Part shown: positions 15,767-53,306 of the stretch, piece by piece | Layout of the letters: every line of letters starts with the position of its first letter | How positions within the stretch are numbered: the stretch's first letter is position 1 | Source of the DNA: a phage | Length of the DNA stretch: 64,000 bases | Reading direction: 5' to 3' (one strand) | Assembly (NCBI GenBank): GCA_036253495.1 | Contig: GCA_036253495.1_4125.1 | Made by a program: the position numbers and the translations under genes | Notes under the pieces: generated by a model | Told to the model about the DNA's origin: nothing | Databases searched by the model: none | Seen by the model: only the letters and a program-made list of their open reading frames with translations

Positions 15767-15946
15767 ATGCTAGAATACTACCTAAGCGTAATTTACCCAG
15801 AAGATAGATACGGCTTCAATTACTTCTCAATGAGCTATCATTGTAGTTCGCAAAGAAAACAAAGAAAATTACTCCTGAATTGTACTAAATTGGCACAGGA
15901 CGAAATGTTCACATATAATGAAGTACTGAAACTAATTTCTATCTAA
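15767..15946 (+). CDS. small hypothetical protein, family A (59 aa, not in ORF track)
   Basis: MLEYYLSVIY...YNEVLKLISI; below the 60-aa track cutoff. Confidence 0.6.
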   Translation: MLEYYLSVIYPEDRYGFNYFSMSYHCSSQRKQRKLLLNCTKLAQDEMFTYNEVLKLISI

Positions 15947-15954: not shown

Positions 15955-16134
15955 ATGCAAGAATTCTATATCTATAAACTCCAGAACAAAGATAGATACA
16001 TCTATAATCAATTCCAAAGGTACTACACAGTCGGGAACAAAAGAGATAAAAAACGATACCTGCTATCATGTACAGTAGAAGCACAAAACGAAAAGTACAC
16101 GTACAGAGAAGTACTGAAACTAATCTCTATATAA
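15955..16134 (+). CDS. small hypothetical protein, family A (59 aa, not in ORF track)
   Basis: MQEFYIYKLQNKDRY...YREVLKLISI; close paralog of 15767-15946. Confidence 0.6.
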   Translation: MQEFYIYKLQNKDRYIYNQFQRYYTVGNKRDKKRYLLSCTVEAQNEKYTYREVLKLISI

Positions 16135-16144: not shown

Positions 16145-16324
16145 ATGCTAGAGTACTACACCGATAATCTCAGTACTAAGGATCGTTTCATGTACGACAC
16201 CTTCGTGAAGTACTACAACCTGGGAACAAAAAGTACTAAAACTATTAATCTCAATAGCTGCATTCATCACGTCCTGACAAAAAATAACCCATACAGAGAA
16301 ATAATCTCGCTTGTAACAGTATAA
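16145..16324 (+). CDS. small hypothetical protein, family A (59 aa, not in ORF track)
   Basis: MLEYYTDNLSTKDRF...YREIISLVTV; overlapping antisense track ORF 16148-16429 rejected. Confidence 0.6.
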   Translation: MLEYYTDNLSTKDRFMYDTFVKYYNLGTKSTKTINLNSCIHHVLTKNNPYREIISLVTV

Positions 16325-23478: not shown

Positions 23479-23495
23479 GTACTAAGGATTATATA

Positions 23496-23699: not shown

Positions 23700-23706
23700 A
23701 AAGTAC

Positions 23707-23734: not shown

Positions 23735-23784
23735 AGTTTACATCAAGGGGAGAAATGGTTCTCCCTGGTAATGAGGAAAATACA

Positions 23785-24006: not shown

Positions 24007-24010
24007 TACA

Positions 24011-24040
24011 GAGGGGATCGATTGATCCCCTTTATTTTGC
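24011..24040 (+). terminator. rho-independent terminator
   Basis: GGGGATC-gatt-GATCCCC + TTTATTTT. Confidence 0.7.
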
Positions 24041-24127
24041 AGTACTGAATCATTTAATAGACGGATCTATGCACCCGGTGGGTTAGAGACTGTATCGTCT
24101 TGATGTAGTAATTATGCCAGTACTGGA
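24041..24127. repeat. ~80-bp repeated intergenic element (copy 3)
   Basis: AGTACTGAA..CTATGCACCCGGTGGGTTAGAG..GTAATTATGCCAGTACTGG. Confidence 0.6.
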
Positions 24128-24172
24128 TGCAGTTGTCAAGAACTATTTTTCAAATACTTTTTATTAAAATAC

Positions 24173-24200
24173 TTGCTAATAGTTTTTAAACGCGTATAAT
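24173..24200 (+). promoter_or_regulatory. early promoter + 5' stem-loop
   Basis: TTGCTA-16-TATAAT; hairpin GGGGAgcgGTTCCCC. Confidence 0.6.
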
Positions 24201-24246
24201 GTTTTGCATAGGGGAGCGGTTCCCCTGGTAACTAAGGAATAAGAAA

Positions 24247-24483
24247 ATGCTTGAACAAATCAAAACAACGTCTGCGAATGTAACGGGAACGGTATCACAC
24301 TTTATTGGTGATGAATCGCGGGGCGTACCCTATTGTGCTGTACATGTAAACACTGATGGCAACTACTGGTTTACGGTTTACGGATCTTATTCATTTGGTC
24401 GACCTGGACATCAAAAAATCCTGGATAAAGTACAGCCAACGGGTAAAAATATCACTGCTGAAATGTTTTATAAAAAATCATAA
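24247..24483 (+). CDS. hypothetical early protein (paralog of 22878-23111)
   Basis: 78 aa; promoter + hairpin upstream. Confidence 0.65.
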   Translation: MLEQIKTTSANVTGTVSHFIGDESRGVPYCAVHVNTDGNYWFTVYGSYSFGRPGHQKILDKVQPTGKNITAEMFYKKS

Positions 24484-24488
24484 AGTAC

Positions 24489-24516
24489 TTGCAATTAGTT
24501 TTTAGTACTGTATAAT
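24489..24516 (+). promoter_or_regulatory. early promoter + 5' stem-loop
   Basis: TTGCAA-16-TATAAT; hairpin GGGGGAAC/GTTCCCC. Confidence 0.65.
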
Positions 24517-24566
24517 ATTTTACATAGCAAGGGGGAACGGTTCCCCTGGTAACTAAGGATAATCAA

Positions 24567-24866
24567 ATGAAAATTGCAATCATCGCCCTGGCTTTATCTG
24601 TTTCCTCTTTCGCTGTTAATGCGTCATTAGATGTACCTGGTGATAAATTCATTCAGTGCACAGTAGCAATGACAGATGAAAGTACTGGCGAGATTGTTTT
24701 AAAGGATCTGGAATTACAGCCAGAAGCATTTAAAAACGGGCCGTTCCATGAAGAAGACGAAAAAGGTAGCACAACAATTTATTATGATGCAATGAAAAAA
24801 CGTGGTTCTGTCACTGTTATGGATACTGAGAAAGTAACGCATACAGGCGTTATTAACTGCCTATAA
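24567..24866 (+). CDS. small secreted protein (signal peptide)
   Basis: MKIAIIALALSVSSFAVNA then mature part; terminator downstream. Confidence 0.65.
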   Translation: MKIAIIALALSVSSFAVNASLDVPGDKFIQCTVAMTDESTGEIVLKDLELQPEAFKNGPFHEEDEKGSTTIYYDAMKKRGSVTVMDTEKVTHTGVINCL

Positions 24867-24885
24867 TACATCAGTACTGAATCAC

Positions 24886-24915
24886 TAGCCCACTATAAGC
24901 AGTGGGCTTTTTTGT
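24886..24915 (+). terminator. rho-independent terminator
   Basis: AGCCCACT-ataagc-AGTGGGCT + TTTTTG. Confidence 0.75.
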
Positions 24916-24961
24916 AGTATCGTAGTACTGGAATACTTTGAAAATAGTTTTAAAAAAGTAG

Positions 24962-24990
24962 TTGACATTACCGCAAAAAGGCGTAGAATG
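24962..24990 (+). promoter_or_regulatory. promoter with long leader (H-NS-like gene)
   Basis: TTGACA-17-TAGAAT; ~120-nt leader before ATG 25113. Confidence 0.55.
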
Positions 24991-25112
24991 TATTACATCA
25001 AGACGGGGAACACTAAGTAGACCGCCAGTAAGTCGAACGAAAAACTGGACACGTCGAGAAAACTTTGATACACTAACTAACGTAAACTAAACTTTAATTG
25101 AGGAATTACATA

Positions 25113-25595
25113 ATGGCTAACGTAAAATCATTCATCAAAGCACTGGTAGCAAATGAAACTAACGTAGCGGCAGAAATCCTGGCCGAACTGGATAGCGATA
25201 CCATGAAAGCAGTACGCAACAATTTTAACATTGCGTACAGCGAAGCGAAAGAACTGCAAGCTAATAAAGCGGCAGCACTTGAAGCTGAGAAGGCAGCACG
25301 CGAAGCTGAATTGCAGAAAACGATTGAAGATATTAACGCCGCCGTCGCTGGGCTTGATCTGGAAGTAGTTACCGAAATGGCACGTAAAGCCCTGGCAGCG
25401 AAATACGGGGAAGACAAGCCAGAAGTAAAAGCTAAAAAATGGATTCAAGAACGTGTGACGGTTGTACTGGATAATGGCGAGGAATACACTGTACCAGTAC
25501 GCGGTAACTGCATTGCGGTAGTACTGGATGCTATCAAAGAAAGCGGATTGACTCGCGAGGAATGGATCGAATCTCATCGCAAAGTTGAAGCATAA
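25113..25595 (+). CDS. H-NS-like protein candidate (coiled-coil N-terminus, H-NS-like C-terminal domain)
   Basis: Ala/Glu/Lys-rich N-terminal half; C-terminus LDNGEEYTVPVRGNCIAVVLDAIKESGLTREEWI resembles H-NS [33 protein letters not shown]; long 5' leader; terminator. Confidence 0.45.
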   Translation: MANVKSFIKALVANETNVAAEILAELDSDTMKAVRNNFNIAYSEAKELQANKAAALEAEKAAREAELQKTIEDINAAVAGLDLEVVTEMARKALAAKYGEDKPEVKAKKWIQERVTVVLDNGEEYTVPVRGNCIAVVLDAIKESGLTREEWIESHRKVEA

Positions 25596-25615
25596 CAATT
25601 AAAGTACTGAATCAC

Positions 25616-25646
25616 TAGCCCACCTTAAACAGTGGGCTTTTTTTGT
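25616..25646 (+). terminator. rho-independent terminator
   Basis: AGCCCAC-cttaaac-AGTGGGCT + TTTTTTT. Confidence 0.75.
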
Positions 25647-25663
25647 GTCTATAGTATCCCAGT

Positions 25664-25733
25664 CCACCAGCACCGCCTAGAATCGATTCTAACGCATTAA
25701 ACTGATTATCTGATGCATCGCCCTAGCTGGTGG
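25664..25733. repeat. inverted repeat bounded by Chi octamers
   Basis: CCACCAGC (25664-25671) and GCTGGTGG (25726-25733); inner inverted CGATTCTAACGCATT / CGTTAGAATGCGATT. Confidence 0.6.
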
Positions 25734-25798
25734 CGTTAAGGTCGTTAGAATGCGATTGAGAGCGTTTAAAGTATTTTGCAAAAAGTAATAAAAAGTAC

Positions 25799-25826
25799 TT
25801 GCACGATAAAGAGATTAGCGTATAAT
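25799..25826 (+). promoter_or_regulatory. early promoter
   Basis: AAAAAGTACTTGCAC-16-TATAAT. Confidence 0.6.
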
Positions 25827-25871
25827 TAATTACATCAAGGCGAGACACCTTAACTAACTGAGGATATAAAG

Positions 25872-26024
25872 ATGAATACTTATGAACTGGATTGTTTCAC
25901 TTTACAAGTAATGTCAGTATGCAGTAAAAAAGATTGGTCATCAAAGGAATTTAAAGCAGTTATCGCGTGTGCAAAACACGGCAAGACTATCAATGAAACG
26001 GCATCAATCATTGATAAACTTTAA
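25872..26024 (+). CDS. small hypothetical protein (50 aa, not in ORF track)
   Basis: promoter TTGCAC/TATAAT upstream, SD GAGGA; MNTYELDCFTLQVMSVCSKK... Confidence 0.5.
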   Translation: MNTYELDCFTLQVMSVCSKKDWSSKEFKAVIACAKHGKTINETASIIDKL

Positions 26025-26032
26025 AAAATAGT

Positions 26033-26061
26033 TTGACAATAGTTTTAAGTACTGCGATAAT
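26033..26061 (+). promoter_or_regulatory. early promoter
   Basis: TTGACA-17-GATAAT. Confidence 0.55.
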
Positions 26062-26094
26062 ACATACATCAACTACTGAATAGGAATCAAAACA

Positions 26095-26322
26095 ATGGCT
26101 ATCGTAATCACTCGCGTAACTGGTACTACTGGCAATTCTTCTACTGTTGCTGTAATTACTAATAAGAAAGGTGCGGAATTGCATTTTGCAATGGATACCT
26201 GGGCAGTGAATGAGTTCGGTCAGTGGGCTAGTGTAGAATACATTGAATCCTATCAAGTGCCATCGATTAGCTTAACTGATTTAGGTGTAGAACGTATCCT
26301 TTGCCTGGATGAATTAAATTAA
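26095..26322 (+). CDS. hypothetical early protein
   Basis: 75 aa; promoter TTGACA/GATAAT upstream. Confidence 0.6.
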   Translation: MAIVITRVTGTTGNSSTVAVITNKKGAELHFAMDTWAVNEFGQWASVEYIESYQVPSISLTDLGVERILCLDELN

Positions 26323-26330
26323 AAAAGTAC

Positions 26331-26358
26331 TTGCAAAGTAAATCAAATAAAGTATAAT
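26331..26358 (+). promoter_or_regulatory. early promoter + 5' stem-loop
   Basis: TTGCAA-16-TATAAT; hairpin GGGGAGAA/TTCTCCCC. Confidence 0.65.
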
Positions 26359-26408
26359 ACATTACATCAAGGGGAGAAATGGTTCTCCCCACTAAGAGGA
26401 AACGAAAA

Positions 26409-26552
26409 ATGAAAACTTGTCAATGTGGTAAAAAATCTATTACTGGTTTAAAGCGGGGCGTTGCTCTTTGTCAGTATCACTATAATGCTCAAGTATGGGG
26501 TAAAGAGTGGGCCGACCGGGTTGAAGCATCAAAGAAAGCAAAAAGTAAGTAA
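26409..26552 (+). CDS. small Cys-rich protein (47 aa, not in ORF track)
   Basis: MKTCQCGKK...CQYHY; promoter + hairpin + SD AGAGGA upstream. Confidence 0.5.
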   Translation: MKTCQCGKKSITGLKRGVALCQYHYNAQVWGKEWADRVEASKKAKSK

Positions 26553-26571
26553 AAATATTATCACAGTACTA

Positions 26572-26600
26572 TTGACATAGATTGATAGTACTGGCATAAT
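26572..26600 (+). promoter_or_regulatory. early promoter (duplicated cassette, copy 1)
   Basis: TTGACA-17-CATAAT; same 90-bp cassette at 26857-26947 and 30738-30827. Confidence 0.6.
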
Positions 26601-26643
26601 AGATTTTATCAAGACAACACATATTAATTTAAGGAATACTAAA

Positions 26644-26856
26644 ATGGCTATCATTATTAAAAACAAAGTTAACAAGACTATCGTTAAACTGGCAGAAGTG
26701 AAAGAAGGTTATAAAGTATCTTGGGAGGGTTTTTATAGGATGTTCACAGATATAGACGATGCAATCAAGTACTACACTGATACGGTTGCTGACTTTGTTC
26801 GTTCTGATGTAGTAATGGCAGTTGCACAACATAAAGCATCGAAAGAAAGTAAGTAA
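26644..26856 (+). CDS. hypothetical early protein (cassette paralog, cf. 30828-31007)
   Basis: 70 aa; near-identical promoter/leader to 26857-26947 and 30738-30827. Confidence 0.65.
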   Translation: MAIIIKNKVNKTIVKLAEVKEGYKVSWEGFYRMFTDIDDAIKYYTDTVADFVRSDVVMAVAQHKASKESK

Positions 26857-26875
26857 AATTATTATCACAGTACTA

Positions 26876-26904
26876 TTGACATAGTTTGATAGTACTGGCA
26901 TAAT
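26876..26904 (+). promoter_or_regulatory. early promoter (duplicated cassette, copy 2)
   Basis: TTGACA-17-CATAAT. Confidence 0.6.
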
Positions 26905-26947
26905 AGATTTTATCAAGACAACACATATTAATTTAAGGAATACTAAA

Positions 26948-27271
26948 ATGGCTAAAACTATCATTAACACCGTATCCCTGGCTGCAATCCGTGCAATCAA
27001 TGTTGACGGTAAACGTTGGACTGATTCATATGGCAATACTTATCATTCTTGTCATGTAAGCGTTGAACTGGATAACGGTGTGAATGATCTGGCGGTTGAA
27101 TCATTTACTTATGGCTATGAAGATGCATATCAACAAACGGCGTTATCTCTCTTAAAGGAATCAGTAGATGGGCTTGATACTGTTGAAACCTCCCTTAATC
27201 GTTTGTGCAATGATTTGTCTATCCCGTTGCATTGTACTGTACAGAATGTTAAACGCAAAAAAGATCTTTAA
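26948..27271 (+). CDS. hypothetical early protein (paralog of 33386-33709)
   Basis: 107 aa; RWTDS.GNTYHSC, FTYGY, VKRKKD shared with 33386-33709. Confidence 0.7.
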   Translation: MAKTIINTVSLAAIRAINVDGKRWTDSYGNTYHSCHVSVELDNGVNDLAVESFTYGYEDAYQQTALSLLKESVDGLDTVETSLNRLCNDLSIPLHCTVQNVKRKKDL

Positions 27272-27351
27272 TTAGCTTTACTTTATGCAGATACTTTGAT
27301 ATAGTGTCTGCATAGGGGAAAGAAATTAAATTAACTTAAGAGGATAGTATA

Positions 27352-27621
27352 ATGAAAAATATCAGTACTTTAATCGATGCAGGTACGCATGTTCGTCGGT
27401 CTATGGTTGCAACCAGTACTACAAAACAAGTAGCGAGCGGTTATCTTGTATTTGTGCACGATGGTAAACTCCTGGAACGTTCAATCAATTTTGATGTTAA
27501 AAACAATTGCCGTTTTATTATCTTTAAGCGTGAACAATATAAAATTGATTTACCAGCGAAGCCCATAAGCGGGGCGTACAACGTGCAATCATTGTTTGAG
27601 CGTCAACCATACACCTATTAA
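27352..27621 (+). CDS. hypothetical early protein
   Basis: 89 aa; SD AAGAGGA. Confidence 0.6.
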   Translation: MKNISTLIDAGTHVRRSMVATSTTKQVASGYLVFVHDGKLLERSINFDVKNNCRFIIFKREQYKIDLPAKPISGAYNVQSLFERQPYTY

Positions 27622-27672
27622 TCAAAACATCGTTAGCGGTTGATTTAGGCCGCTTATATTGAGGATTATACC

Positions 27673-27942
27673 ATGAACGTTAATCAAGTACTGAATGAAG
27701 TTGAAAGCATCATTAAACCAATGAAACGAATTGATGCAATTCCTACACCGGAAGAATGCCGCCTTTATGAGCGTTACAGTGTAGAACAAGCCCAGGCGAT
27801 GGCCCGTATCCGTCCGGTTGCTAGTACTGAGAACGCGGATCAGGACGTTACAGGGGATTATATCATTAATCCAGTACTAGGGAAGATGCCGCCAATCACC
27901 GAAGAACAAAAAGACTATTTGAGCCAGTACTTAAAAGGTTAA
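27673..27942 (+). CDS. hypothetical early protein
   Basis: 89 aa; SD GAGGA. Confidence 0.6.
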   Translation: MNVNQVLNEVESIIKPMKRIDAIPTPEECRLYERYSVEQAQAMARIRPVASTENADQDVTGDYIINPVLGKMPPITEEQKDYLSQYLKG

Positions 27943-27947
27943 TTAAT

Positions 27948-28157
27948 ATGCTTACTGTACAGGATAAGATCGACATCTTAAAGGTTAATATGTATGTGAT
28001 TGATGCAGATCCTGAAAAAGTATTTGCATACGATGATTCTAATCGTAGTCCTTTCTATTGTAGTCATGTAGTTGGATACGTGCCGTTGGCGTATGTTATC
28101 GAAAGAGTGGTTGATGCAGCATACAATCATTTTTTAGAAAATAATACTTGCAATTAG
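27948..28157 (+). CDS. hypothetical early protein
   Basis: 69 aa; closely follows upstream ORF. Confidence 0.55.
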   Translation: MLTVQDKIDILKVNMYVIDADPEKVFAYDDSNRSPFYCSHVVGYVPLAYVIERVVDAAYNHFLENNTCN

Positions 28158-28175
28158 TTTTCAGTACTGTATAAT
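28148..28175 (+). promoter_or_regulatory. early promoter + 5' stem-loop
   Basis: TTGCAA-16-TATAAT; hairpin GCGGGAA/TTCCCGC. Confidence 0.65.
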
Positions 28176-28229
28176 GATTTGCATCGAGAGCGGGAATGGT
28201 TCCCGCCTAACTCAAAGAGAGAAAATATA

Positions 28230-28472
28230 ATGGAAACTATTTTAATCAAAGACACTGCAACTACTGTTACTTATGATAATGATTGTATTATCCCTGGCAC
28301 TGATTACGGTGAACGTGTACCCGTTCAAGTCGAGATTGATACTACATACATTGACCAGGCTGAAAAGTGTATCACTATTGTTATTGGTGAATATCGTTTT
28401 CTACCAGAAGAGATCCAAAAATGGCAGTATATGATTGACCGTGCGAAATTAGTCGCACAAAGTTTAAAATAA
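28230..28472 (+). CDS. hypothetical early protein
   Basis: 80 aa from METILIKD; promoter + hairpin upstream; track extension rejected. Confidence 0.6.
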   Translation: METILIKDTATTVTYDNDCIIPGTDYGERVPVQVEIDTTYIDQAEKCITIVIGEYRFLPEEIQKWQYMIDRAKLVAQSLK

Positions 28473-28475
28473 TAC

Positions 28476-28503
28476 TTGCAATTAGTTTTCAGTACTGTAT
28501 AAT
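28476..28503 (+). promoter_or_regulatory. early promoter + 5' stem-loop
   Basis: TTGCAA-16-TATAAT; hairpin GGGGAG/CTCCCC. Confidence 0.65.
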
Positions 28504-28554
28504 GTTTTACATGAAGGGGAGAAATAGTACTCCCCACTAATTAAGGAATATGAA

Positions 28555-28701
28555 ATGAAAGCATCAAAAAAGAGTAATACTAAGAAAGCATGTTCACCTT
28601 TCGCTGGGGTATTCCCTTTACGTTTCGTTGATGAAGTGGTTTCCTACCCGCCGGGCCTTACTCCTGAGATGGTAGAAAGTTTGCGTAAATCTAAAAAATA
28701 G
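28555..28701 (+). CDS. small basic protein (48 aa, not in ORF track)
   Basis: MKASKKSNTKKACSPF...; promoter + hairpin + SD AAGGA upstream. Confidence 0.5.
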   Translation: MKASKKSNTKKACSPFAGVFPLRFVDEVVSYPPGLTPEMVESLRKSKK

Positions 28702-28704
28702 TAC

Positions 28705-28732
28705 TTGCAATTAGTTTTCAGTACTGTATAAT
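28705..28732 (+). promoter_or_regulatory. early promoter + 5' stem-loop
   Basis: TTGCAA-16-TATAAT; hairpin GGGGAAA/GGTTCTCCCC. Confidence 0.65.
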
Positions 28733-28782
28733 GTTTTACATAGAGGGGGGAAATGGTTCTCCCCGATACTAGGAGAATCAAA

Positions 28783-28935
28783 ATGAAACAATATAATGCT
28801 CGGTTTGATGTTACTATCGGCAACGGCAAAGGTCAATTTTCTTTCAGTACTCGTCGCAGTTATACAGAAAACTTCCTGCGTAATTGTGCATTGACCGCCG
28901 CACAAATTAAACATTACTTCCAGGCTAAAAAATGA
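28783..28935 (+). CDS. small hypothetical protein (50 aa)
   Basis: MKQYNARFDV...; promoter + hairpin + SD AGGAGA; track extension rejected. Confidence 0.55.
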   Translation: MKQYNARFDVTIGNGKGQFSFSTRRSYTENFLRNCALTAAQIKHYFQAKK

Positions 28936-29021
28936 AATCATTGGCTTATTACAGTTCGGCGGTGATCGGTGCATTGATCGCGGCATTGTTAGTAACCTAT
29001 CTATTCTTTGTGGTGATTTAA
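28932..29021 (+). CDS. small hydrophobic membrane peptide (29 aa)
   Basis: MKSLAYYSSAVIGALIAALLVTYLFFVVI; ATGA overlap with upstream stop. Confidence 0.4.
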   Translation: MKSLAYYSSAVIGALIAALLVTYLFFVVI

Positions 29022-29159
29022 ATGAATCCTAACGGTTTAATTTATAGTACTCCTAAAACGAAAGCAGATAAAGCGAAAGCACGTAAAGCGAAAGTAAAGG
29101 AGTACATCAAGCAAGGCATGACGCGAAAAGCAGCAGTACTAAAAGCTAAAAATAAATGA
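29022..29159 (+). CDS. small Lys-rich protein (45 aa)
   Basis: MNPNGLIYSTPKTKADKAKARKAKVKEY...; directly follows membrane peptide. Confidence 0.4.
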   Translation: MNPNGLIYSTPKTKADKAKARKAKVKEYIKQGMTRKAAVLKAKNK

Positions 29160-29164
29160 AAAAA

Positions 29165-29197
29165 GTGGTTGACTTCGGTCAGCCATTTTGCTATTAT
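29165..29197 (+). promoter_or_regulatory. composite terminator-hairpin/promoter element (copy 1, divergent)
   Basis: AAAAAGTGGTTGACTTCGGTCAGCCATTTTGCTATTAT: hairpin spans -35 TTGACT and spacer; -10 TATTAT. Confidence 0.5.
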
Positions 29198-29278
29198 ATA
29201 TTCATTGAGAGATAGCTCACTAGCCCACCGGGTGCGGAAGTGTAAATAAAATATATCAATCTAATAAGGAGTACTACA

Positions 29279-29461
29279 ATGTTTAAACCAATCGAACTAG
29301 CGGCATCACATATCATCGGTAAACCTGCCGTTATCATACGCCAGGAAGACGTAAACCTATGGATCATCTATGTAGACATGAAAGAGATTGAGCGTCACGA
29401 TGATTTCAAATCAGCGTCAATTGCGTATGATATGGCGTTATGTGAGTATCAAAGAGATTAA
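29279..29461 (+). CDS. hypothetical early protein
   Basis: 60 aa; SD AAGGAG; composite terminator/promoter element upstream. Confidence 0.6.
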   Translation: MFKPIELAASHIIGKPAVIIRQEDVNLWIIYVDMKEIERHDDFKSASIAYDMALCEYQRD

Positions 29462-29481
29462 AAGTATTTTGCAAAAAGTAC

Positions 29482-29509
29482 TTGCATTGTACTTAGAATC
29501 AAGTATAAT
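29482..29509 (+). promoter_or_regulatory. early promoter + 5' stem-loop
   Basis: TTGCAT-16-TATAAT; hairpin GGGGAAAC/GTTTCCCC. Confidence 0.65.
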
Positions 29510-29561
29510 GTTTTACATAGCAAGGGGAAACGGTTTCCCCTGGTAACTAAGGAAATGAATT

Positions 29562-30029
29562 ATGAATAGCATCGAATTCGTCGCAGCAGTACAAGAAAAC
29601 TTCCTGAAAGTATTCCCTAACGGTTTCTTTATCGCCCGACCTTTACCGCTGGGTGGCGACGTGGGGATCACTATGTCACTGACTCGCGAGCTTGCCGACT
29701 GCCCCCACAATATCCGCGATAACGACCGCATGATGATGACCTTTGCGATCCACGGTATGAAGTTCGGGGATAGCGACGAATACACAGACAAGCTGATCAT
29801 GGAACCGTACCGCAGCGTTATCAGTACTATTCCACGTAAACAGTACTACGCGATGGGACATGACAAAATCCCTACCCGTAAGACTACAAACACGCCTGAG
29901 AAGCTGTTAGCGACTCTTAACAAGTATATTCGGGCCGCAGGTAAACAGGTGTTAGATCTTAAAGCATTAAACGAGATTTACCAACAGGAAAACATCAAAG
30001 AGCAGTACTTAGAAATTAACGTAAAATAG
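29562..30029 (+). CDS. hypothetical early protein
   Basis: 155 aa; promoter TTGCAT/TATAAT + hairpin GGGGAAAC/GTTTCCCC upstream. Confidence 0.7.
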   Translation: MNSIEFVAAVQENFLKVFPNGFFIARPLPLGGDVGITMSLTRELADCPHNIRDNDRMMMTFAIHGMKFGDSDEYTDKLIMEPYRSVISTIPRKQYYAMGHDKIPTRKTTNTPEKLLATLNKYIRAAGKQVLDLKALNEIYQQENIKEQYLEINVK

Positions 30030-30032
30030 TAC

Positions 30033-30061
30033 TAGACAACACAACGGGGCTATTATATAAT
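30033..30061 (+). promoter_or_regulatory. promoter
   Basis: TAGACA-17-TATAAT within imperfect palindrome. Confidence 0.45.
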
Positions 30062-30093
30062 AGTCCCATCTTAAGCAAACAAGGAACTACAAA

Positions 30094-30432
30094 ATGATCT
30101 CAATCGCTCAATCTAACTTTGAAAACGAAATCATCGCCCAGGCACTGCGTTTAAATGATGGTCGGGCCGAAATTAATTACGGTTTCAATTCAGGCGGTTG
30201 TGAAAACTATCAGTACTTTGTAACGGCTGATGGCGGTGTCCTGGGAATCAATACAGTTATTGTAAACATTCAGAAAATTAATTTCAATGATCCAGAAGAT
30301 AGCCAGTTTTACATCACGGGCGTAGACGTGAACTATGAGGATGACTCACTAACTGATGATTGCACTGGTGAGAAGTTAGAAAGTGCATACGGTGAAGATG
30401 ATTATCAGTCCGGTCCAGAAGATTTCGAATAA
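30094..30432 (+). CDS. acidic hypothetical protein (candidate DNA-mimic)
   Basis: 112 aa; highly acidic C-terminal half (NDPEDSQFY...YEDDSLTDD...YGEDDYQSGPEDFE). Confidence 0.6.
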   Translation: MISIAQSNFENEIIAQALRLNDGRAEINYGFNSGGCENYQYFVTADGGVLGINTVIVNIQKINFNDPEDSQFYITGVDVNYEDDSLTDDCTGEKLESAYGEDDYQSGPEDFE

Positions 30433-30445
30433 TATAAAAAATAGT

Positions 30446-30473
30446 TTGACAATAGATTATAGTACTGTATAAT
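30446..30473 (+). promoter_or_regulatory. early promoter + 5' stem-loop
   Basis: TTGACA-16-TATAAT; hairpin GGGGAGAA/TTCTCCCC. Confidence 0.65.
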
Positions 30474-30524
30474 AAGTTACATCAAGGGGAGAATAGTTCT
30501 CCCCACAAACAGAGAGAAAACAAA

Positions 30525-30737
30525 ATGGCTAATATCCGCACTGTACTGAAAAATGCAAAACAAGTTTTATTTTCTGATCATGAAAATTTCAACAAGGATA
30601 TCACAGGCGTTCGGAATATCAAAGATGTAAAAAATGTTATGGGTATCTATTGCAATATGAAACGTGTTGGCACGTTCGGCGATAAAGTACTATACCAGGC
30701 AGGGGATTACAATTTTACACTGACTATCATTAACTAA
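30525..30737 (+). CDS. hypothetical early protein
   Basis: 70 aa; promoter + hairpin upstream. Confidence 0.65.
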   Translation: MANIRTVLKNAKQVLFSDHENFNKDITGVRNIKDVKNVMGIYCNMKRVGTFGDKVLYQAGDYNFTLTIIN

Positions 30738-30756
30738 AAATATTATCACAGTACTA

Positions 30757-30785
30757 TTGACAACGTTTGATAGTACTGACATAAT
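30757..30785 (+). promoter_or_regulatory. early promoter (duplicated cassette, copy 3)
   Basis: TTGACA-17-CATAAT. Confidence 0.6.
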
Positions 30786-30827
30786 AACTTTTATCAAGAC
30801 AACGCATATTAACTTAAGGAATTAAAA

Positions 30828-31007
30828 ATGGCTATTATCGCAAAAACTGAAATCGTTGGTCTGGATTCTATCATCATGACGTTTGAAGATCAAAAAGGGA
30901 TGTATGTAGTTTCCTATGGTGATTATGTTCGGGAGTATGAAACGGTAGACGAAGCCTTTGAAAGTTACATTCGCCAGGTGAATAAAGCATACGACGACTA
31001 CCGCTAA
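30828..31007 (+). CDS. small hypothetical protein (59 aa, not in ORF track), cassette paralog of 26644-26856
   Basis: MAIIAKTEIVGLDS...; same promoter/leader cassette as 26553-26643. Confidence 0.55.
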   Translation: MAIIAKTEIVGLDSIIMTFEDQKGMYVVSYGDYVREYETVDEAFESYIRQVNKAYDDYR

Positions 31008-31034
31008 AATATATTACCAGTACTATTAAAGATA

Positions 31035-31062
31035 TTGACATAGTTTGATAGTACTGTATAAT
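31035..31062 (+). promoter_or_regulatory. early promoter
   Basis: TTGACA-16-TATAAT. Confidence 0.6.
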
Positions 31063-31106
31063 AAGTTTTATCAACAGTAGTTAACTTAACCTAAGAGAGA
31101 AAGAAA

Positions 31107-31250
31107 ATGATCGCACTGGATTCATTCATCGAAGCAGTACTGGCAAAAACTGGCGAAGATCTGACCGCAGAACAATACGCAATGATCGAACAATGCCAGC
31201 AAGACGGTAAATCGGTGAAAGATACTGTTAAGATTATCCGCAAGATGTAA
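31107..31250 (+). CDS. small hypothetical protein (47 aa, not in ORF track)
   Basis: MIALDSFIEAVLAKTGEDLTAEQYAMIEQCQQDGK...; promoter upstream, terminator downstream. Confidence 0.5.
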   Translation: MIALDSFIEAVLAKTGEDLTAEQYAMIEQCQQDGKSVKDTVKIIRKM

Positions 31251-31255
31251 GATTA

Positions 31256-31288
31256 TAGCCCACTGGTTAACGCTGGTGGGCTTTTTAG
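31256..31288 (+). terminator. rho-independent terminator (contains Chi octamer)
   Basis: AGCCCAC-tggttaacgctg-GTGGGCT + TTTT; includes GCTGGTGG. Confidence 0.65.
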
Positions 31289-31362
31289 TATATACCTATC
31301 CGATAGTACTACAAAATAGATTAGCTCGTTAGAATGCGTTTGAGAGCGTTTAAATAAGTACT

Positions 31363-31390
31363 AAAAAGTATTGACAGTACTGATAGATAG
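31363..31390 (+). promoter_or_regulatory. early promoter + 5' stem-loop
   Basis: TTGACA-16-TATAAT; hairpin GGGGAA-acatc-TTCCCC. Confidence 0.65.
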
Positions 31391-31445
31391 TGTATAATGT
31401 TTTACATGAAGGGGAAACATCTTCCCCTACTAAGAGGAAAACAAA

Positions 31446-31634
31446 ATGGAACAATTATCAAGTATTTTAGTACAAGATGAATACGGCAATCCAGGAAGTG
31501 CTATCATTGTTCGGGGTAATAAGGCAACGTTTGTTATTGCTGGTGGACCTGTACAGCGTAGCATTAAAAACAATGCCGTTACTATTAATAATGTACGCTA
31601 TCGTTTAGATAAAGAATTAATTCATAAACTTTAA
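31446..31634 (+). CDS. hypothetical early protein
   Basis: 62 aa; promoter + hairpin upstream. Confidence 0.65.
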   Translation: MEQLSSILVQDEYGNPGSAIIVRGNKATFVIAGGPVQRSIKNNAVTINNVRYRLDKELIHKL

Positions 31635-31642
31635 AAAAGTAC

Positions 31643-31670
31643 TGGACAATAGATTATAGTACTGTATAAT
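31643..31670 (+). promoter_or_regulatory. early promoter + 5' stem-loop
   Basis: TGGACA-16-TATAAT; hairpin GGGGAGAA/TTCTCCCC. Confidence 0.6.
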
Positions 31671-31720
31671 AAGTTACATGAAGGGGAGAAATGATTCTCC
31701 CCAGTACTGAGGAAAGAAAA

Positions 31721-31933
31721 ATGCAAGGTCAACTAATCGTTCGTAAATGGTCTGATACTAACGCTAAACCGTGGGATGTACAATACATCGCCCCCAATGG
31801 TGAATCCAGATATCAACCAGGTGTAACGCATAGTACTGAGCAATATGCCGCCGCACACCGTGAACGCCTGTTACAATCCATGCAGCAAGGCTTCGGTGAA
31901 AAATTCATCCAAGATCATTGGCTGAAAGATTAA
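31721..31933 (+). CDS. hypothetical early protein
   Basis: 70 aa from MQGQLIVRKW; promoter + hairpin; track extension rejected. Confidence 0.65.
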   Translation: MQGQLIVRKWSDTNAKPWDVQYIAPNGESRYQPGVTHSTEQYAAAHRERLLQSMQQGFGEKFIQDHWLKD

Positions 31934-31941
31934 AAAAGTAT

Positions 31942-31969
31942 TTGACAAAGTATCACAGTACTGTATAAT
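31942..31969 (+). promoter_or_regulatory. early promoter + 5' stem-loop
   Basis: TTGACA-16-TATAAT; hairpin GGGGAGAA/TTTCTCCCC. Confidence 0.65.
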
Positions 31970-32020
31970 TAATTACATCAAGGGGAGAAGTTTTCTCCCC
32001 ACCATATAAGGGTAACAGTT

Positions 32021-32110
32021 ATGCACATGAATCCGTTCATAGTAGTAATTGCAATCATTATGGCAGTACAGGCCGTATTAGTTTACTTAAGCAAAGCAGG
32101 AGTTATCTAA
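32021..32110 (+). CDS. small hydrophobic membrane peptide (29 aa)
   Basis: MHMNPFIVVIAIIMAVQAVLVYLSKAGVI; promoter + hairpin upstream. Confidence 0.4.
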   Translation: MHMNPFIVVIAIIMAVQAVLVYLSKAGVI

Positions 32111-32111
32111 A

Positions 32112-32285
32112 ATGATCCATGTAGAATTATCAGTACTGAAAGATTTGTTTTATCGGATGGGTACTACTGGCGAATATCCGAAGGGTGATACCGCAAAACT
32201 TTTTGTATCACTCGACTTATGGCAACGCGAACAATTAGTAACGTCCTGGCGTAAAGGTAAAGCCGACAAGGGGGCCGTAGCATGA
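32112..32285 (+). CDS. small hypothetical protein (57 aa, not in ORF track)
   Basis: MIHVELSVLKDLFYRMGTTGEYPKGD...; preferred over antisense track ORF 32150-32332. Confidence 0.45.
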   Translation: MIHVELSVLKDLFYRMGTTGEYPKGDTAKLFVSLDLWQREQLVTSWRKGKADKGAVA

Positions 32286-32431
32286 AAGAATACATTTTCG
32301 AAGTTACGTTTTTGGGTAAAGGTATGCATCAACTGATACGGTCCAGCGGATACAGTGTTAACCAGGCGTGGAATAACTTAAAACAAATGTACCCGAACGC
32401 TATCACATATCGCAACCCTCGCGAGGCATAA
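32282..32431 (+). CDS. small hypothetical protein (49 aa, not in ORF track)
   Basis: MKEYIFEVTFLGKGMHQLIRSSGYS...; ATGA overlap with upstream ORF. Confidence 0.45.
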   Translation: MKEYIFEVTFLGKGMHQLIRSSGYSVNQAWNNLKQMYPNAITYRNPREA

Positions 32432-32446
32432 AATAAATTGAAAAAA

Positions 32447-32479
32447 GGGATTGACTCCGGTCAGTCCCTTTGCTATTAT
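32447..32479 (+). promoter_or_regulatory. composite terminator-hairpin/promoter element (copy 2)
   Basis: AAAAAAGGGATTGACTCCGGTCAGTCCCTTTGCTATTAT. Confidence 0.55.
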
Positions 32480-32578
32480 ATACGCATAGAAACAAATTAG
32501 CCCACCGGGTGCATAAATGTATCTATTGTTTGCTGGTGGAGGTATTATCTAGTACTGAAAACTATTTTTAAAAAGTAC

Positions 32579-32606
32579 TTGCATTGTACTTAGAATCAAG
32601 TATAAT
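32579..32606 (+). promoter_or_regulatory. early promoter (upstream of structured leader)
   Basis: TTGCAT-16-TATAAT GTTTTACATCAG. Confidence 0.6.
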
Positions 32607-32612
32607 GTTTTA

Positions 32613-32694
32613 CATCAGGACGGGGAATGAAACAAGTAACCCCGTTAAGTAGTCCAGGAGTAAGACATAAGAAAACCTCCCCTGATAAAATAGT
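32613..32694 (+). other. conserved structured 5' leader RNA between tandem promoters (copy 2)
   Basis: ACGGGGAAtgaaacaagtaaCCCCGT then CCAGGAG...CCTCCCCTG. Confidence 0.5.
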
Positions 32695-32722
32695 TTGACA
32701 ATAGAAAGTAAACGAGTATAAT
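32695..32722 (+). promoter_or_regulatory. second (proximal) promoter
   Basis: TTGACA-16-TATAAT before ATG 32755. Confidence 0.55.
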
Positions 32723-32754
32723 ACTTACATCAACCACTGATAAGGAAACATAAA

Positions 32755-33030
32755 ATGCGGATTCTACTGACAGCTAACGAAATCGAGCAAGTACTGACTA
32801 CTAACCTGGAACAATGGAAACGTGATGCAGATATCCAGGCGGTACAATGGCTTAACGATAAGTTAACGCCAGATGACTTAAGCAAGATTGTTGACCCTCA
32901 ATTCTATGAAGATATTCACGACACGGCTTTAAGCGTCGAGGATGTACTTGATAAGCACTACATTGATATTGATTTGCAGGTTTACGGTCGTAAAAACTTT
33001 ATCACTATTCACGACATTTACAATACTTAA
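32755..33030 (+). CDS. hypothetical early protein
   Basis: 91 aa; tandem promoters and structured leader upstream. Confidence 0.65.
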   Translation: MRILLTANEIEQVLTTNLEQWKRDADIQAVQWLNDKLTPDDLSKIVDPQFYEDIHDTALSVEDVLDKHYIDIDLQVYGRKNFITIHDIYNT

Positions 33031-33033
33031 GTA

Positions 33034-33061
33034 TTGACAAAGTATCTTAGTACTGTATAAT
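33034..33061 (+). promoter_or_regulatory. early promoter + 5' stem-loop
   Basis: TTGACA-16-TATAAT; hairpin GAGGGGAA/TTCCCCTC. Confidence 0.65.
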
Positions 33062-33115
33062 AGTTTACATCAAGAGGGGAATGGTTCCCCTCCTAACAAA
33101 GAGAGAGAAATAAAA

Positions 33116-33298
33116 ATGGCTAAGTGCACTATCTGTAAGAAAGAAATCGTATTAGTTCCAAGTGCCCGTGAACGTGCCGCTCGGTTCGGTGGCAAAGCGT
33201 CAGACTATACAAAAATGTTTACTGCCCATGCAGATTGCCAGGTAGCAAAACGTTCACAAGAAAGCGTAGAATTAATGCGTAAACTTTCCAAAAAATAA
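33116..33298 (+). CDS. small zinc-ribbon-like protein
   Basis: 60 aa; CTIC...HADC motif; promoter + hairpin upstream. Confidence 0.6.
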   Translation: MAKCTICKKEIVLVPSARERAARFGGKASDYTKMFTAHADCQVAKRSQESVELMRKLSKK

Positions 33299-33301
33299 GT
33301 A

Positions 33302-33329
33302 TTGACAAAGTATCTTAGTACTGTATAAT
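33302..33329 (+). promoter_or_regulatory. early promoter + 5' stem-loop (duplicate of 33034)
   Basis: TTGACA-16-TATAAT; hairpin GAGGGGAA/TTCCCCTC. Confidence 0.65.
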
Positions 33330-33385
33330 AGTTTACATCAAGTGAGGGGAATGGTTCCCCTCCTAACTAAAAGAGAGAAATAAAA

Positions 33386-33709
33386 ATGGCTATGATCCTC
33401 ACCCAGAAAGTAGAACTGAAAATTGTAACATCCTTTGACATTAAAGTTAATCGGTGGACTGATTCACACGGCAATACTTACCACTCTTGCTACGTGTCTG
33501 CGTTAATTGGCGACCGCTGGGAGGATTTAGGACATGAAACCTTTACTTACGGTTACGGCACACAAGGCGAATACACGGGCTTGGAGATCATTAAAGAAAC
33601 GGTTATAGGTTTCAACCCGAAAGAAAAAGTTATTCATCAAATAGAAAAAGAGATCAACAAAGAAATAACAGTTCGCTACAACGATGTAAAACGTAAGAAA
33701 GACATGTAA
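33386..33709 (+). CDS. hypothetical early protein (paralog of 26948-27271)
   Basis: 107 aa; upstream promoter/hairpin nearly identical to that of 33116. Confidence 0.7.
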   Translation: MAMILTQKVELKIVTSFDIKVNRWTDSHGNTYHSCYVSALIGDRWEDLGHETFTYGYGTQGEYTGLEIIKETVIGFNPKEKVIHQIEKEINKEITVRYNDVKRKKDM

Positions 33710-33731
33710 TAGAATCCATTTAAAGTACTAT

Positions 33732-33760
33732 TTGACATTGCCCAGATAGTACTTTATAAT
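33732..33760 (+). promoter_or_regulatory. early promoter
   Basis: TTGACA-17-TATAAT. Confidence 0.6.
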
Positions 33761-33804
33761 AGACTCTAGCTTGTAGTACTAACTTAACTAATAGGATGTA
33801 TACC

Positions 33805-34200
33805 ATGATTACTAAATTCTACGCTACCCGTGAAGCTGCCCGTATTGTTGCACGCGAGGAAGGAGCAGCATTTAAAGACATGGGCACGACCGCACCGAAA
33901 GGCCAACGCTGGGCCGTACAGTTCAAAGAAATCTCTGATATTGTGAATTCACCTGAACCAGTACTAACAGCAGCAGAACAGAAGAAAGCTGATGAACTGT
34001 CAGCAGTACTTAACGCTCAAGATGAATTTATCGCGGGTTCTGATATCAAAGTACAGGTAAATGCTAATGCATGGACTCACGCGGATCACCTGGCTAACCT
34101 GAAGCGTCCAAGTGAACTGGTTCGCAACCAGAAAGAGATCCGACACGACCGTAAGGGTAATCGTGTAACAGTATACAGTAAACGCCGCCAGGTTATCTAA
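33805..34200 (+). CDS. hypothetical early protein (paralog of 21133-21399)
   Basis: 131 aa from MITKFYATREAAR; SD AGGA; terminator downstream. Confidence 0.65.
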   Translation: MITKFYATREAARIVAREEGAAFKDMGTTAPKGQRWAVQFKEISDIVNSPEPVLTAAEQKKADELSAVLNAQDEFIAGSDIKVQVNANAWTHADHLANLKRPSELVRNQKEIRHDRKGNRVTVYSKRRQVI

Positions 34201-34221
34201 TAACTTGCAGTACTAACAACA

Positions 34222-34250
34222 CGGCGGGATCAGTTCCCGCCTTTTTTATA
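34222..34250 (+). terminator. rho-independent terminator
   Basis: GGCGGGA-tcagt-TCCCGCC + TTTTTT. Confidence 0.75.
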
Positions 34251-34262
34251 GGATAAACTAAA

Positions 34263-34517
34263 ATGATTAAGGTACAACTATCTAAAGATAATATCTTGCG
34301 GGTACACTATAAAGCCCCTCAGAGAATCATCACAAAGGCCGTACAGCTTGCTAATGAGTTTATTAATGGTAATCTATTGCCCAGGAAGTTAAGCAACGGC
34401 AAACTGCGTGTAATCGATGTAGACACTAACAACAGGATAGTAATCGAGAATACCGGAAAGATAAACCTCTATGAACACCAACAATATAATAAGAAAATAA
34501 AACTAATATCACGTTGA
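34263..34517 (+). CDS. hypothetical early protein
   Basis: 84 aa; SD AGGA. Confidence 0.6.
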   Translation: MIKVQLSKDNILRVHYKAPQRIITKAVQLANEFINGNLLPRKLSNGKLRVIDVDTNNRIVIENTGKINLYEHQQYNKKIKLISR

Positions 34518-34542
34518 CAGTACTCAATTGTTTTAGTACTAT
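34514..34542 (+). promoter_or_regulatory. early promoter
   Basis: TTGACA-17-TACTAT. Confidence 0.55.
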
Positions 34543-34570
34543 GTATCTATACCAACACGGGAGAAACAAA

Positions 34571-52810: not shown

Positions 52811-53136
52811 TGAATACTAAAATATATGTTTCTTCAAGTACAATGGGAAGTGGTTTTACTTATACGTGCTTTTTTACTACATTGAATAAAACACCTATAT
52901 TGATTATTCGTGATTTCAATGAATGTAATATAGAGTACGTATCCAAAACAGATAAGCTTCCTAATTACATCGAATGCGAATACATGGAGAACTATGAAAG
53001 TTTTATATTTCAGGAATCATTAGTATGGGATAAAGAAATCGATTTCTTTATGTACCTTGCATTACAAAAGTACTACAGAGATAACAAGGACCAAATAGTT
53101 CGTTCTTGCATTTATTCTATTAATCTGGAGTACTGA
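52810..53136 (+). CDS. small protein, family C
   Basis: YESFIFQESLVWDK. Confidence 0.65.
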   Translation: MNTKIYVSSSTMGSGFTYTCFFTTLNKTPILIIRDFNECNIEYVSKTDKLPNYIECEYMENYESFIFQESLVWDKEIDFFMYLALQKYYRDNKDQIVRSCIYSINLEY

Positions 53137-53306
53137 TGCTTAAAAAAGAACAAATGGAATCATTAATGAATGCAGTTATTCGTCGTTTTGTTAAAGACAT
53201 TAGTCATAAAAACTGTATTACAAATGACAGGTACGGTATAGAATTGTATATAGCTAATATTCACATGGCGTACAGAGAATATATTAAGACACGTCACAGG
53301 GGTTGA
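53136..53306 (+). CDS. small hypothetical protein (56 aa, not in ORF track)
   Basis: MLKKEQMESLMNAVIRRF...KTRHRG; ends with same CACAGGGGTTGA junction as 53308-53790. Confidence 0.4.
   Translation: MLKKEQMESLMNAVIRRFVKDISHKNCITNDRYGIELYIANIHMAYREYIKTRHRG

Follow-up and report, generated by a model that had tools for sequence, protein, structure and literature searches.

Small open reading frames below a 60-amino-acid cutoff are probable genes of an Asteriusvirus phage, most of them in a probable short-cassette array of its terminal-repeat block

RESULTS AND DISCUSSION

Small open reading frames and their relatives

A stretch of phage DNA of 64,000 nucleotides (nt) (GenBank assembly GCA_036253495.1, contig GCA_036253495.1_4125.1), referred to below as the window, contains 14 open reading frames (ORFs) that are missing from its mechanical ORF track. 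Ten of them, labeled s1 to s10, lie in positions 25872-32431; the remaining four are a1 to a3, which make up family A, and b1 at 53136-53306. The label p51 denotes the first gene of the p51-s4-s5 operon. An original prediction, made from the letters of the window, had proposed all 14 as genes. Every one of them was found at the predicted position, and s1 to s10 had ATG starts and the predicted lengths. They are absent from the track because of its threshold of 60 amino acids (aa).

The source phage is an Asteriusvirus, a jumbo coliphage of the 121Q/PBECO4 type, and its closest record is A4, which is 97-99% identical over two parts of the window other than positions 25,800-32,500. A megablast search of positions 25,800-32,500 against GenBank phages returned 58 records with 88-96% nt identity, most of which came from jumbo myophages of Escherichia or Salmonella within the genus Asteriusvirus (121Q, PBECO4, slurp01, G17, A4, and others). 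The matches were mosaic, and none of the 58 records reached 80% query coverage. Orthologous stretches were obtained from about 20 phage records and from two IMG/VR contigs (L009 and L010). An IMG/VR scan with a 155-aa neighboring protein yielded two loci only, which were too few for statistics and served as distant outgroups. Homologs of each peptide were located by tblastn, and each match was extended to the stop codon. Selection was measured as the pooled Nei-Gojobori ratio of nonsynonymous to synonymous substitution rates (dN/dS), calculated for the proposed frame and for the two control frames of the same alignments. The CMSTMSU record was left out as evidence; it is marked UNVERIFIED and contains apparent homopolymer-type frameshifts in p51 and s5. 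No tRNA genes were detected in the window by ARAGORN, and no known RNA families were detected in it by Rfam. The small genes of the main array, together with p51, are as follows.

25872..26024, + strand: s1, 50 aa; dN/dS 0.30 in frame versus 1.25/2.18 out of frame
26409..26552, + strand: s2, 47 aa; dN/dS 0.12; C4, C21, and H24 invariant
28555..28701, + strand: s3, 48 aa; dN/dS 0.27 in frame versus 3.23/1.18 out of frame
28783..28935, + strand: p51, 50 aa, first gene of the p51-s4-s5 operon; phrog_7119; dN/dS 0.06
28932..29021, + strand: s4, 29 aa, hydrophobic, single helix predicted; start overlaps the p51 stop (ATGA); dN/dS 0.25 versus 1.16/1.39
29022..29159, + strand: s5, 45 aa, Lys-rich; directly after the s4 stop (TAAATG); phrog_29913, E = 1.8e-32; dN/dS 0.33
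30828..31007, + strand: s6, 59 aa; phrog_9374; dN/dS 0.12
31107..31250, + strand: s7, 47 aa; phrog_34103; dN/dS 0.18
32021..32110, + strand: s8, 29 aa, hydrophobic, accessory slot; dN/dS 0.29 in frame, control frames 0.49/7.48
32112..32285, + strand: s9, 57 aa; phrog_10572; dN/dS 0.29
32282..32431, + strand: s10, 49 aa; start overlaps the s9 stop (ATGA); phrog_37188; dN/dS 0.26

Expression signals and gene spacing

Counting s1 to s10 raised the coding density of positions 25,596-32,754 from 49% to 69%. On the + strand of this segment we found 24 ORFs of at least 45 aa with a Met start, compared to 3.8 +/- 1.9 in shuffled sequences. The gaps that remain without the small ORFs had been put at 150-450 bp; they measured about 280-820 bp, larger than predicted. 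Once s1 to s10 are included, intergenic distances become regular at 51-119 nt, with the exception of terminator and promoter regions of 195-323 nt.

The promoter and ribosome-binding context claimed for these ORFs was recovered, with sigma70 promoters and Shine-Dalgarno (SD) motifs before most of them. The SD motifs lie 5-10 nt 5' of most starts. The starts of s4 and s10 (ATGA) and of b1 (by 1 nt of stop and start) overlap an upstream stop codon; s5 and s9 follow such a codon at a distance of 0-1 nt. Initiation at the small ORFs can be ascribed either to an SD with a start codon or, as for s4, whose own SD is weak, to coupling to the upstream stop. Consensus-like sigma70 promoters precede s2, s3, the p51-s4-s5 operon, s6, s7, and the s8-s9-s10 operon. 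Promoter-like sites numbered 49, compared to 28.3 +/- 4.9 in shuffles, and seven perfect 12/12 TTGACA-16-TATAAT promoters lie within 25-33.5 kb. Two groups of genes, p51-s4-s5 (28783-29159) and s8-s9-s10 (32021-32431), are translationally coupled trios, each with its own promoter and leader hairpin and with a strong hairpin terminator at its end (29162 and 32444, respectively). The signals are listed below.

25799..25826, + strand: s1 promoter, sigma70-type TTGCAC-16-TATAAT, read from the sequence; its 16-nt spacing and flanks match the other listed promoters
26331..26358, + strand: s2 promoter, TTGCAA-16-TATAAT
26371..26390, + strand: s2 leader hairpin, GGGGAGAA-ATGG-TTCTCCCC, which holds the spurious ATG at 26379; minimum free energy -13.9 kcal/mol, z = -2.76; covariance model score 47.9 bits
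28476..28503, + strand: s3 promoter
28705..28732, + strand: promoter of the p51-s4-s5 operon
29162..29189, + strand: terminator hairpin closing the p51-s4-s5 operon, first part of a repeated module of about 95 nt
30757..30785, + strand: s6 promoter, hairpin-less leader class
31035..31062, + strand: s7 promoter, perfect TTGACA-16-TATAAT
31257..31282, + strand: intrinsic terminator 3' of s7
31942..31969, + strand: promoter of the s8-s9-s10 operon, perfect consensus
31982..32000, + strand: leader hairpin of the s8-s9-s10 operon
32444..32471, + strand: terminator hairpin closing the s8-s9-s10 operon, first part of the second module copy

Conservation and purifying selection

The original prediction had named conservation in related phages as one way of checking these genes, and the comparison came out in its favor. 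Wherever a relative holds the locus, the ORF was intact; its start was unchanged and its length almost always so, and the only frame disruptions seen were those of the CMSTMSU record. In-frame dN/dS values for s1 to s10, a3, and b1 ranged from 0.12 to 0.33, whereas the control frames gave 1.05-7.5, the sole exception being one s8 frame at 0.49. Variable sites fell mostly on codon position 3, for example, 8/5/25 for the three codon positions of s2 and 15/6/39 for those of s6, and the indels in s5 and b1 were in frame. With ORFs intact in all relatives and substitutions of the coding type, the claim that small genes had been lost to the 60-aa cutoff was supported.

Conservation extended beyond the close relatives. 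L009 and L010 are 65-66% identical to the window on the 155-aa neighboring protein and retain s1 (44%, in L010), s5 (36%, in L010), s7 (70-72%, in both), and s10 (40%, in L009) at the aa level. Counting other genera as well as these distant contigs, s1, s2, s5, s6, s7, and s10 are kept as proteins. Membership in PHROG families, with full-length matches at E values of 1e-25 to 1e-37, was found for s5, s6, s7, s9, s10, and p51; the functions of these families are unknown. No PHROG match was obtained for s1, s2, s3, s4, s8, a1 to a3, or b1, and the small proteins had no hit above threshold when searched by sequence in Pfam, NCBIfam, and the PDB.

The s1 protein is identical in 121Q, A4, and UE-S1 and is annotated elsewhere as A4_276 and 121Q gp278. 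Seven intact homologs were found for s3 (85-100% aa identity; annotated as A4_284 and G17_00034), seven for s9 (75-98% identity), and ten for s5, among them a variant with an in-frame 2-codon insertion. The s10 protein has a homolog of 61% identity in Klebsiella phage Muenster. Homologs of s6 form 33 protein clusters, 31 of which are 57-62 aa long, and those in Vequintavirus and Phapecoctavirus share 75-76% aa identity with it. A C-terminal GK(S/T)..(D/E)T..II.K pattern shared by s1 and s7 had raised the suspicion that the two are paralogs; BLASTP gave no alignment, and this relationship is unsupported. Two long repetitive proteins that appeared in an HMMER search with s7, beside two short relatives, had scattered unrelated Pfam matches and were treated as spurious.

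Location in the terminal repeat and a model of early expression

Approximately 40 promoter-like sites on the + strand occupy positions 18,991-39,423. This promoter-dense block matches in position the direct terminal repeat known from the genus, and therefore s1 to s10 lie in the repeat. The repeat of fEgEco12 (1-20,993) maps to window positions ~18,604-40,305, or about 21.7 kb, with its position 54 at 18,657 and its end at ~40,305. The length of the fEgEco12 repeat, 20,993 bp, was confirmed by restriction digests (PMC13070987). The terminal repeat of Sharanji is 20,668 bp long. Orthologs of s1 to s5 are located at 6.8-9.5 kb of the fEgEco12 record, and two copies are present per record. A sign change of the GC skew near 18 kb fits the left boundary of the repeat.

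Sigma70-type promoters over short hypothetical ORFs taken as early genes have been described for related jumbo phages and rV5 (PMC5259590, PMC3606486), and in the related phage CBB, RpoD-like promoters are concentrated over short early ORFs (PMC5259590). The arrangement in the window resembles that of T5, T4-like, rV5-like, and RaK2-like phages, which likewise have many short unknown ORFs behind strong host-type sigma70 promoters. The terminal repeats of T5 hold its pre-early genes, and the early regions of T4-like phages are promoter dense. A location inside a long direct terminal repeat, common to s1 to s10, is a T5-like arrangement. The small proteins showed no sequence homology to the early proteins of T5 or T4, and we know of no two-step DNA transfer in Asteriusvirus.

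Each short cassette of the block comprises a host sigma70 promoter close to consensus, in most cases a G-rich 5' leader stem-loop, an SD, and one small gene or a coupled trio. In the mechanism that we propose, host RNA polymerase would transcribe the cassettes immediately after DNA entry, and the products would be early microproteins directed at host targets, with takeover, exclusion, or antidefense as examples of their roles. The cassettes would be exchangeable, recombining at promoter and terminator boundaries, which is consistent with the three states of the s8 slot and with the occurrence of s2 and s6 in more than one genus, both described below.

We consider it very probable that the flagged ORFs are bona fide Asteriusvirus genes and that s1 to s10 form an array of short cassettes in the terminal-repeat block of about 21.7 kb. 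Their status as genes follows from the ORFs, signals, conservation, purifying selection, and the predicted folds of s6 and s10; their timing and role we infer. It should be noted that several points weigh against this interpretation. The repeat boundaries were transferred by homology from another phage, whose identity at those boundaries is only 78-81%, and early timing is suggested by promoter type and by analogy with other phages. Among the individual genes, s4 is the weakest single case, with 14 variable sites and a binomial P of 0.031 on its own, and the s8 control frame at 0.49 makes for a weaker frame contrast. There is no dN/dS estimate for a1, whose sole ortholog found is identical, or for a2, whose homologs are 60 aa long. 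The literature searched yielded neither Ribo-seq nor RNA-seq nor small-protein proteomics data on Asteriusvirus. Finally, no function is readable from the sequence of any small gene by Pfam, NCBIfam, PDB, or fold searches.

The same terminal-repeat region of fEgEco12 contains gene g10 (L028, 971-1270), annotated as "protein spackle." This label hints at superinfection-exclusion functions in the terminal-repeat block.

Start codons within leader hairpins

The loop of the leader hairpin contains an ATG (within ..GAGAAATGGTTCTC..) at positions 26379, 28753, and 31691, giving rise to spurious "MVLP/MILP" N termini. These false starts have been adopted by mechanical ORF lists and by some database entries (P0039, P0040, and A4_286). 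The mechanical s2 ORF starts at 26379 and encodes 57 aa, and p51 is listed in the ORF track as 60 aa from the loop ATG at 28753. We weighed the alternative that the genes are real and some of their boundaries wrong, with s2 of 57 aa, p51 of 60 aa, and s8 of 27 aa (start at 32027). The three database entries use the long forms, and both candidate ATGs of s8 are conserved in both of its alleles. On the other hand, the upstream ATGs lie in the hairpin loop and are not preceded by an SD, whereas the downstream starts have SD motifs at 8-9 nt spacing. Among the database proteins that carry them, the "MVLP..." extensions lack sequence conservation, and in L008 and L022 the s2 frame is open only 12 nt upstream of the ATG equivalent to 26409. 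The alternative boundaries appear improbable to us. For s2, the original prediction had chosen the internal start at 26409 (47 aa), which is preceded by AAGAGGAAA and is the better of the two.

Ten intact homologs of s2 were found, one of them in Vequintavirinae phage A5-4. Six protein clusters were also found for s2, and the N-terminal "MVLP.." extension varies where the hairpin ATG has been taken as the start. A zinc-ribbon or zinc-knuckle was considered for this Cys-rich protein and rejected because C6 is not invariant, being Tyr in P0040; only C4, C21, and H24 are. Comparison with zinc-finger families gave Pfam ZNF512 at E = 0.22, which did not pass the cutoff, and a PDB profile search gave E values of at least 0.13.

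Two hydrophobic 29-aa peptides

The s4 gene was intact in all 13 fetched relatives, which also retain its junctions to p51 and s5. Its 14 variable sites, distributed 6/1/7 by codon position, comprise seven synonymous changes and seven conservative replacements. An internal 76-nt segment of s4 was found by blastn in all 36 Asteriusvirus records and at full length in 35. A coding sequence (CDS) for s4 is annotated in only 12 of the 33 annotated records, and A4, 121Q, PBECO4, G17, and slurp01 are not among them.

The s8 gene occupies an accessory slot. The allele of the window is present in A4, where it is unannotated, and in Turkey5. A second allele of 30 aa, 45-48% identical to the first, is present in 121Q, G17, and UB. 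Both alleles keep an MxMNP start, a hydrophobic core, and a C-terminal GVI. WPEC3 and ECO103 lack s8, and in them s9 is under the direct control of the promoter. Among the relatives, the slot 5' of s9 (31934-32111; compare L002 5040-5165 and L006 7300-7430) exists in three states: promoter, hairpin, and s8 allele 1; s8 allele 2 with no promoter; and promoter and hairpin with no s8. Such a pattern resembles an exchange of cassettes at promoter boundaries.

The two peptides had been likened to small membrane-active phage peptides. The hydrophobicity part of this claim stood, in that the best 19-residue Kyte-Doolittle windows scored 2.85 for s4, 2.69 for s8, and 2.65 for s8 allele 2, so that a membrane-spanning length is reached; a match to a known peptide family was not obtained, since PHROGs, Pfam, and NCBIfam placed no characterized membrane-active peptide family above threshold for either one. 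A tblastn search with the s4 and s8 peptides against the phage collection also returned nothing, probably as a result of the low-complexity filter and of E-value limits for short queries. KdpF and the KPN_01571 family are likewise about 29 aa long with one hydrophobic segment of helix length. Their scores (KdpF, E = 0.39; NF033695, 15.3 bits against a cutoff of 35) were subthreshold, and homology to s4 or s8 is unsupported. In the proposed mechanism, s4 and s8 would each be inserted in the inner membrane as a single helix.

For these two genes, it can also be argued that the act of translation matters, through ribosome coupling from p51 to s5 or through loading for s9, and that the peptides themselves have no function. 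The tight fit of s4 between p51, whose stop overlaps its start (ATGA), and s5, which it joins at TAAATG, would suit such a role, as would the weak SD of s4 and the dispensability of s8 in WPEC3 and ECO103, where s9 is driven directly from promoter and hairpin. However, all seven aa changes in s4 are conservative swaps of hydrophobic or small residues (dN/dS 0.25), and the gene is kept in all 36 records. Likewise, the s8 alleles are only 45-48% identical, yet length, MxMNP, a hydrophobic core of helix length, and GVI are maintained. We regard translation without a functional peptide as an explanation of low probability, slightly below that of misplaced boundaries.

Leader hairpin and repeated terminator-promoter module

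About 26 of the approximately 40 promoters are followed, about 12 nt past the -10 box, by a G-rich stem-loop (GGGGAGAA-N3-4-TTCTCCCC and variants). Additional leader hairpins lie at 28516-28535 and 28745-28764, and the element spans window positions 20,298-39,468. A covariance model identified 45 copies, all on the sense strand, in the window, L009, L010, two Phapecoctavirus records (L020 and L021), and Vequintavirinae phage A5-4 (L022). In the alignment, which was fitted to the covariance model, 90.7% of the cells were paired and double changes occurred at all seven pairs. The covariation score of this fitted alignment was 0.463, compared to 0.296 in shuffles (reached by 0 of 500) and 0.14-0.25 with the pairing partners slid. 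Frequent G-U pairs point to structure at the RNA level. The loop is often AAUGG or AAUAG, and the annotation of phAPEC8 labels its counterpart of the hairpin a "PHIRE promoter." The leader hairpin could be an mRNA-stabilizing or regulatory element.

A broader proposal is that the terminal-repeat block is a coherent regulatory system, in which dozens of cassettes share the hairpin as a handle for a dedicated RNA-binding factor or nuclease, of phage or host origin, that stabilizes or silences early mRNAs, and in which s4 is a genus-wide membrane peptide with a specific host target. We put this forward tentatively, as an unlikely but possible extension.

A module of about 95 nt recurs at 29156-29255, 32439-32521, 35742-35841, and 38820-38915, with a variant at 21748-21830. 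It consists, in order, of an A-run, a terminator hairpin with a UUCG or UCCG loop and an invariant TTGAC (-35) in its stem, and TATTATAT (-10). In the leader that follows TATTATAT, there is an invariant CCCAC-N-GGGTGC box. In L009 and L010 the module is conserved at 84-87% nt identity, compared to only 36-72% identity for the proteins of these contigs. Some records based on PHANOTATE contain a 102-nt CDS on the module 3' of s5. This is probably an overcall because module paralogs differ by a 5-nt indel and the conservation shows no codon periodicity.

The presence of such conserved noncoding elements, the excess of ORFs on the antisense strand (9 versus 3.8 in shuffles), and an empty Rfam result that leaves an unknown RNA possible a priori might suggest that the small ORFs are chance open frames in spacer or regulatory DNA conserved as nucleotides or RNA rather than as protein, which we consider very improbable in view of codon periodicity confined to the proposed frame (barring the s8 control frame at 0.49), aa identity of 36-76% kept across lineages with barely alignable DNA, in-frame indels, confident predicted folds of two products (s6 and s10), and SD and start positions that are conserved across relatives.

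Annotation in sister phages

The small genes are not new, as GenBank records of sister phages already carry them as hypothetical proteins. A4 annotates eight of s1 to s10 (A4_276/278/284/287/291/292/295/296) in addition to a1 to a3 (A4_251-253) and b1 (A4_353). Most of s1 to s10 are also annotated in 121Q (gp278-300), G17 (G17_00020-39), slurp01, WPEC3 (WPEC3_CDS040), and fEgEco12 (g013-g023). In sister Asteriusvirus genomes the orthologs have 75-100% aa identity, the same order, and the same promoters, with no essential difference from the window. The annotations differ in that s8 and s4 are both absent in A4, PBECO4, and slurp01, that s4 only is absent in 121Q and G17, and that some false upstream starts are used. 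About a fifth of the early region is invisible when ORFs are filtered at 60 aa, and the 29-aa class is still overlooked by most deposited annotations of the genus. It is plausible that the microproteins serve host takeover or exclusion in phages that are now proposed for therapy.

Predicted folds and sharing across genera

An AlphaFold2 model of s6, built on a shallow alignment, had a pLDDT of 94.6 and contained four strands and a helix. Foldseek found no PDB neighbor of this fold at E <= 0.001, and BFVD gave uncharacterized phage proteins only. The s10 model, also from a shallow alignment, had a pLDDT of 92.2 and a beta-beta-alpha-beta topology, which it shares with its best PDB neighbors, T7 Gp2 and the epsilon subunit of Firmicute RNA polymerase (YkzG). 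The TM-score was 0.70 with a root mean square deviation of 2.2 A against 4lk0_M and 0.70 against 4njc_B; the Foldseek E value of 0.21 at 12% identity is not significant, and no PDB match to s10 had E <= 0.001. The same search also matched ribosomal and virion proteins with this small beta-beta-alpha-beta fold. T7 Gp2 acts via an acidic strip, whereas s10 is basic, with a net charge of about +3 as counted from its sequence. The modeled resemblance to Gp2 may serve as a lead and is not a finding.

Segments 30511-31072 and 26095-26552, which include s6, its 70-aa upstream neighbor, and s2, share 73-84% nt identity with phAPEC8-like and other coliphages of about 145-150 kb. The rV5-like phages share s6 alone, and a total of 305 records gave matches in the distant search. 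Judged from these sequence matches, the pattern indicates that early-gene cassettes were probably exchanged horizontally between unrelated myophage lineages. A 70-aa ORF at 26644-26856 and s6 both begin with MAII.K, and both use the hairpin-less promoter and leader class, TTGACA-17-CATAAT followed by ..TTTTATCAAGACAAC..; the two may be paralogs.

Small genes outside the repeat

The remaining four ORFs lie on either side of the repeat, family A about 2.3 kb ahead of its left end and b1 about 13 kb beyond its right end. They are small genes of ordinary, tightly packed operons.

15767..15946, + strand: a1, 59 aa, tandem paralog family; paralogous to a2 (46% aa identity); identical in A4 (A4_251)
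15955..16134, + strand: a2, 59 aa, family A; homologs of 56-58% identity in slurp01 and G17; A4_252
16145..16324, + strand: a3, 59 aa, family A; orthologs at 64-70% aa identity; dN/dS 0.23 versus 1.43/1.51; A4_253
53136..53306, + strand: b1, 56 aa; start overlaps the upstream stop by one base; dN/dS 0.23; A4_353

Homologs of b1 are 65% identical and 61 aa long, with an in-frame insertion of 5 codons (15 nt). Family A (15573-16324) comprises no fewer than four tandem members, the additional one being a 61-aa ORF at 15573-15758 with a dN/dS of 0.10, and none of them matches a PHROG family. Five members are present in slurp01, and the C-terminal motif YxYREVLKLISI is common to all of family A.

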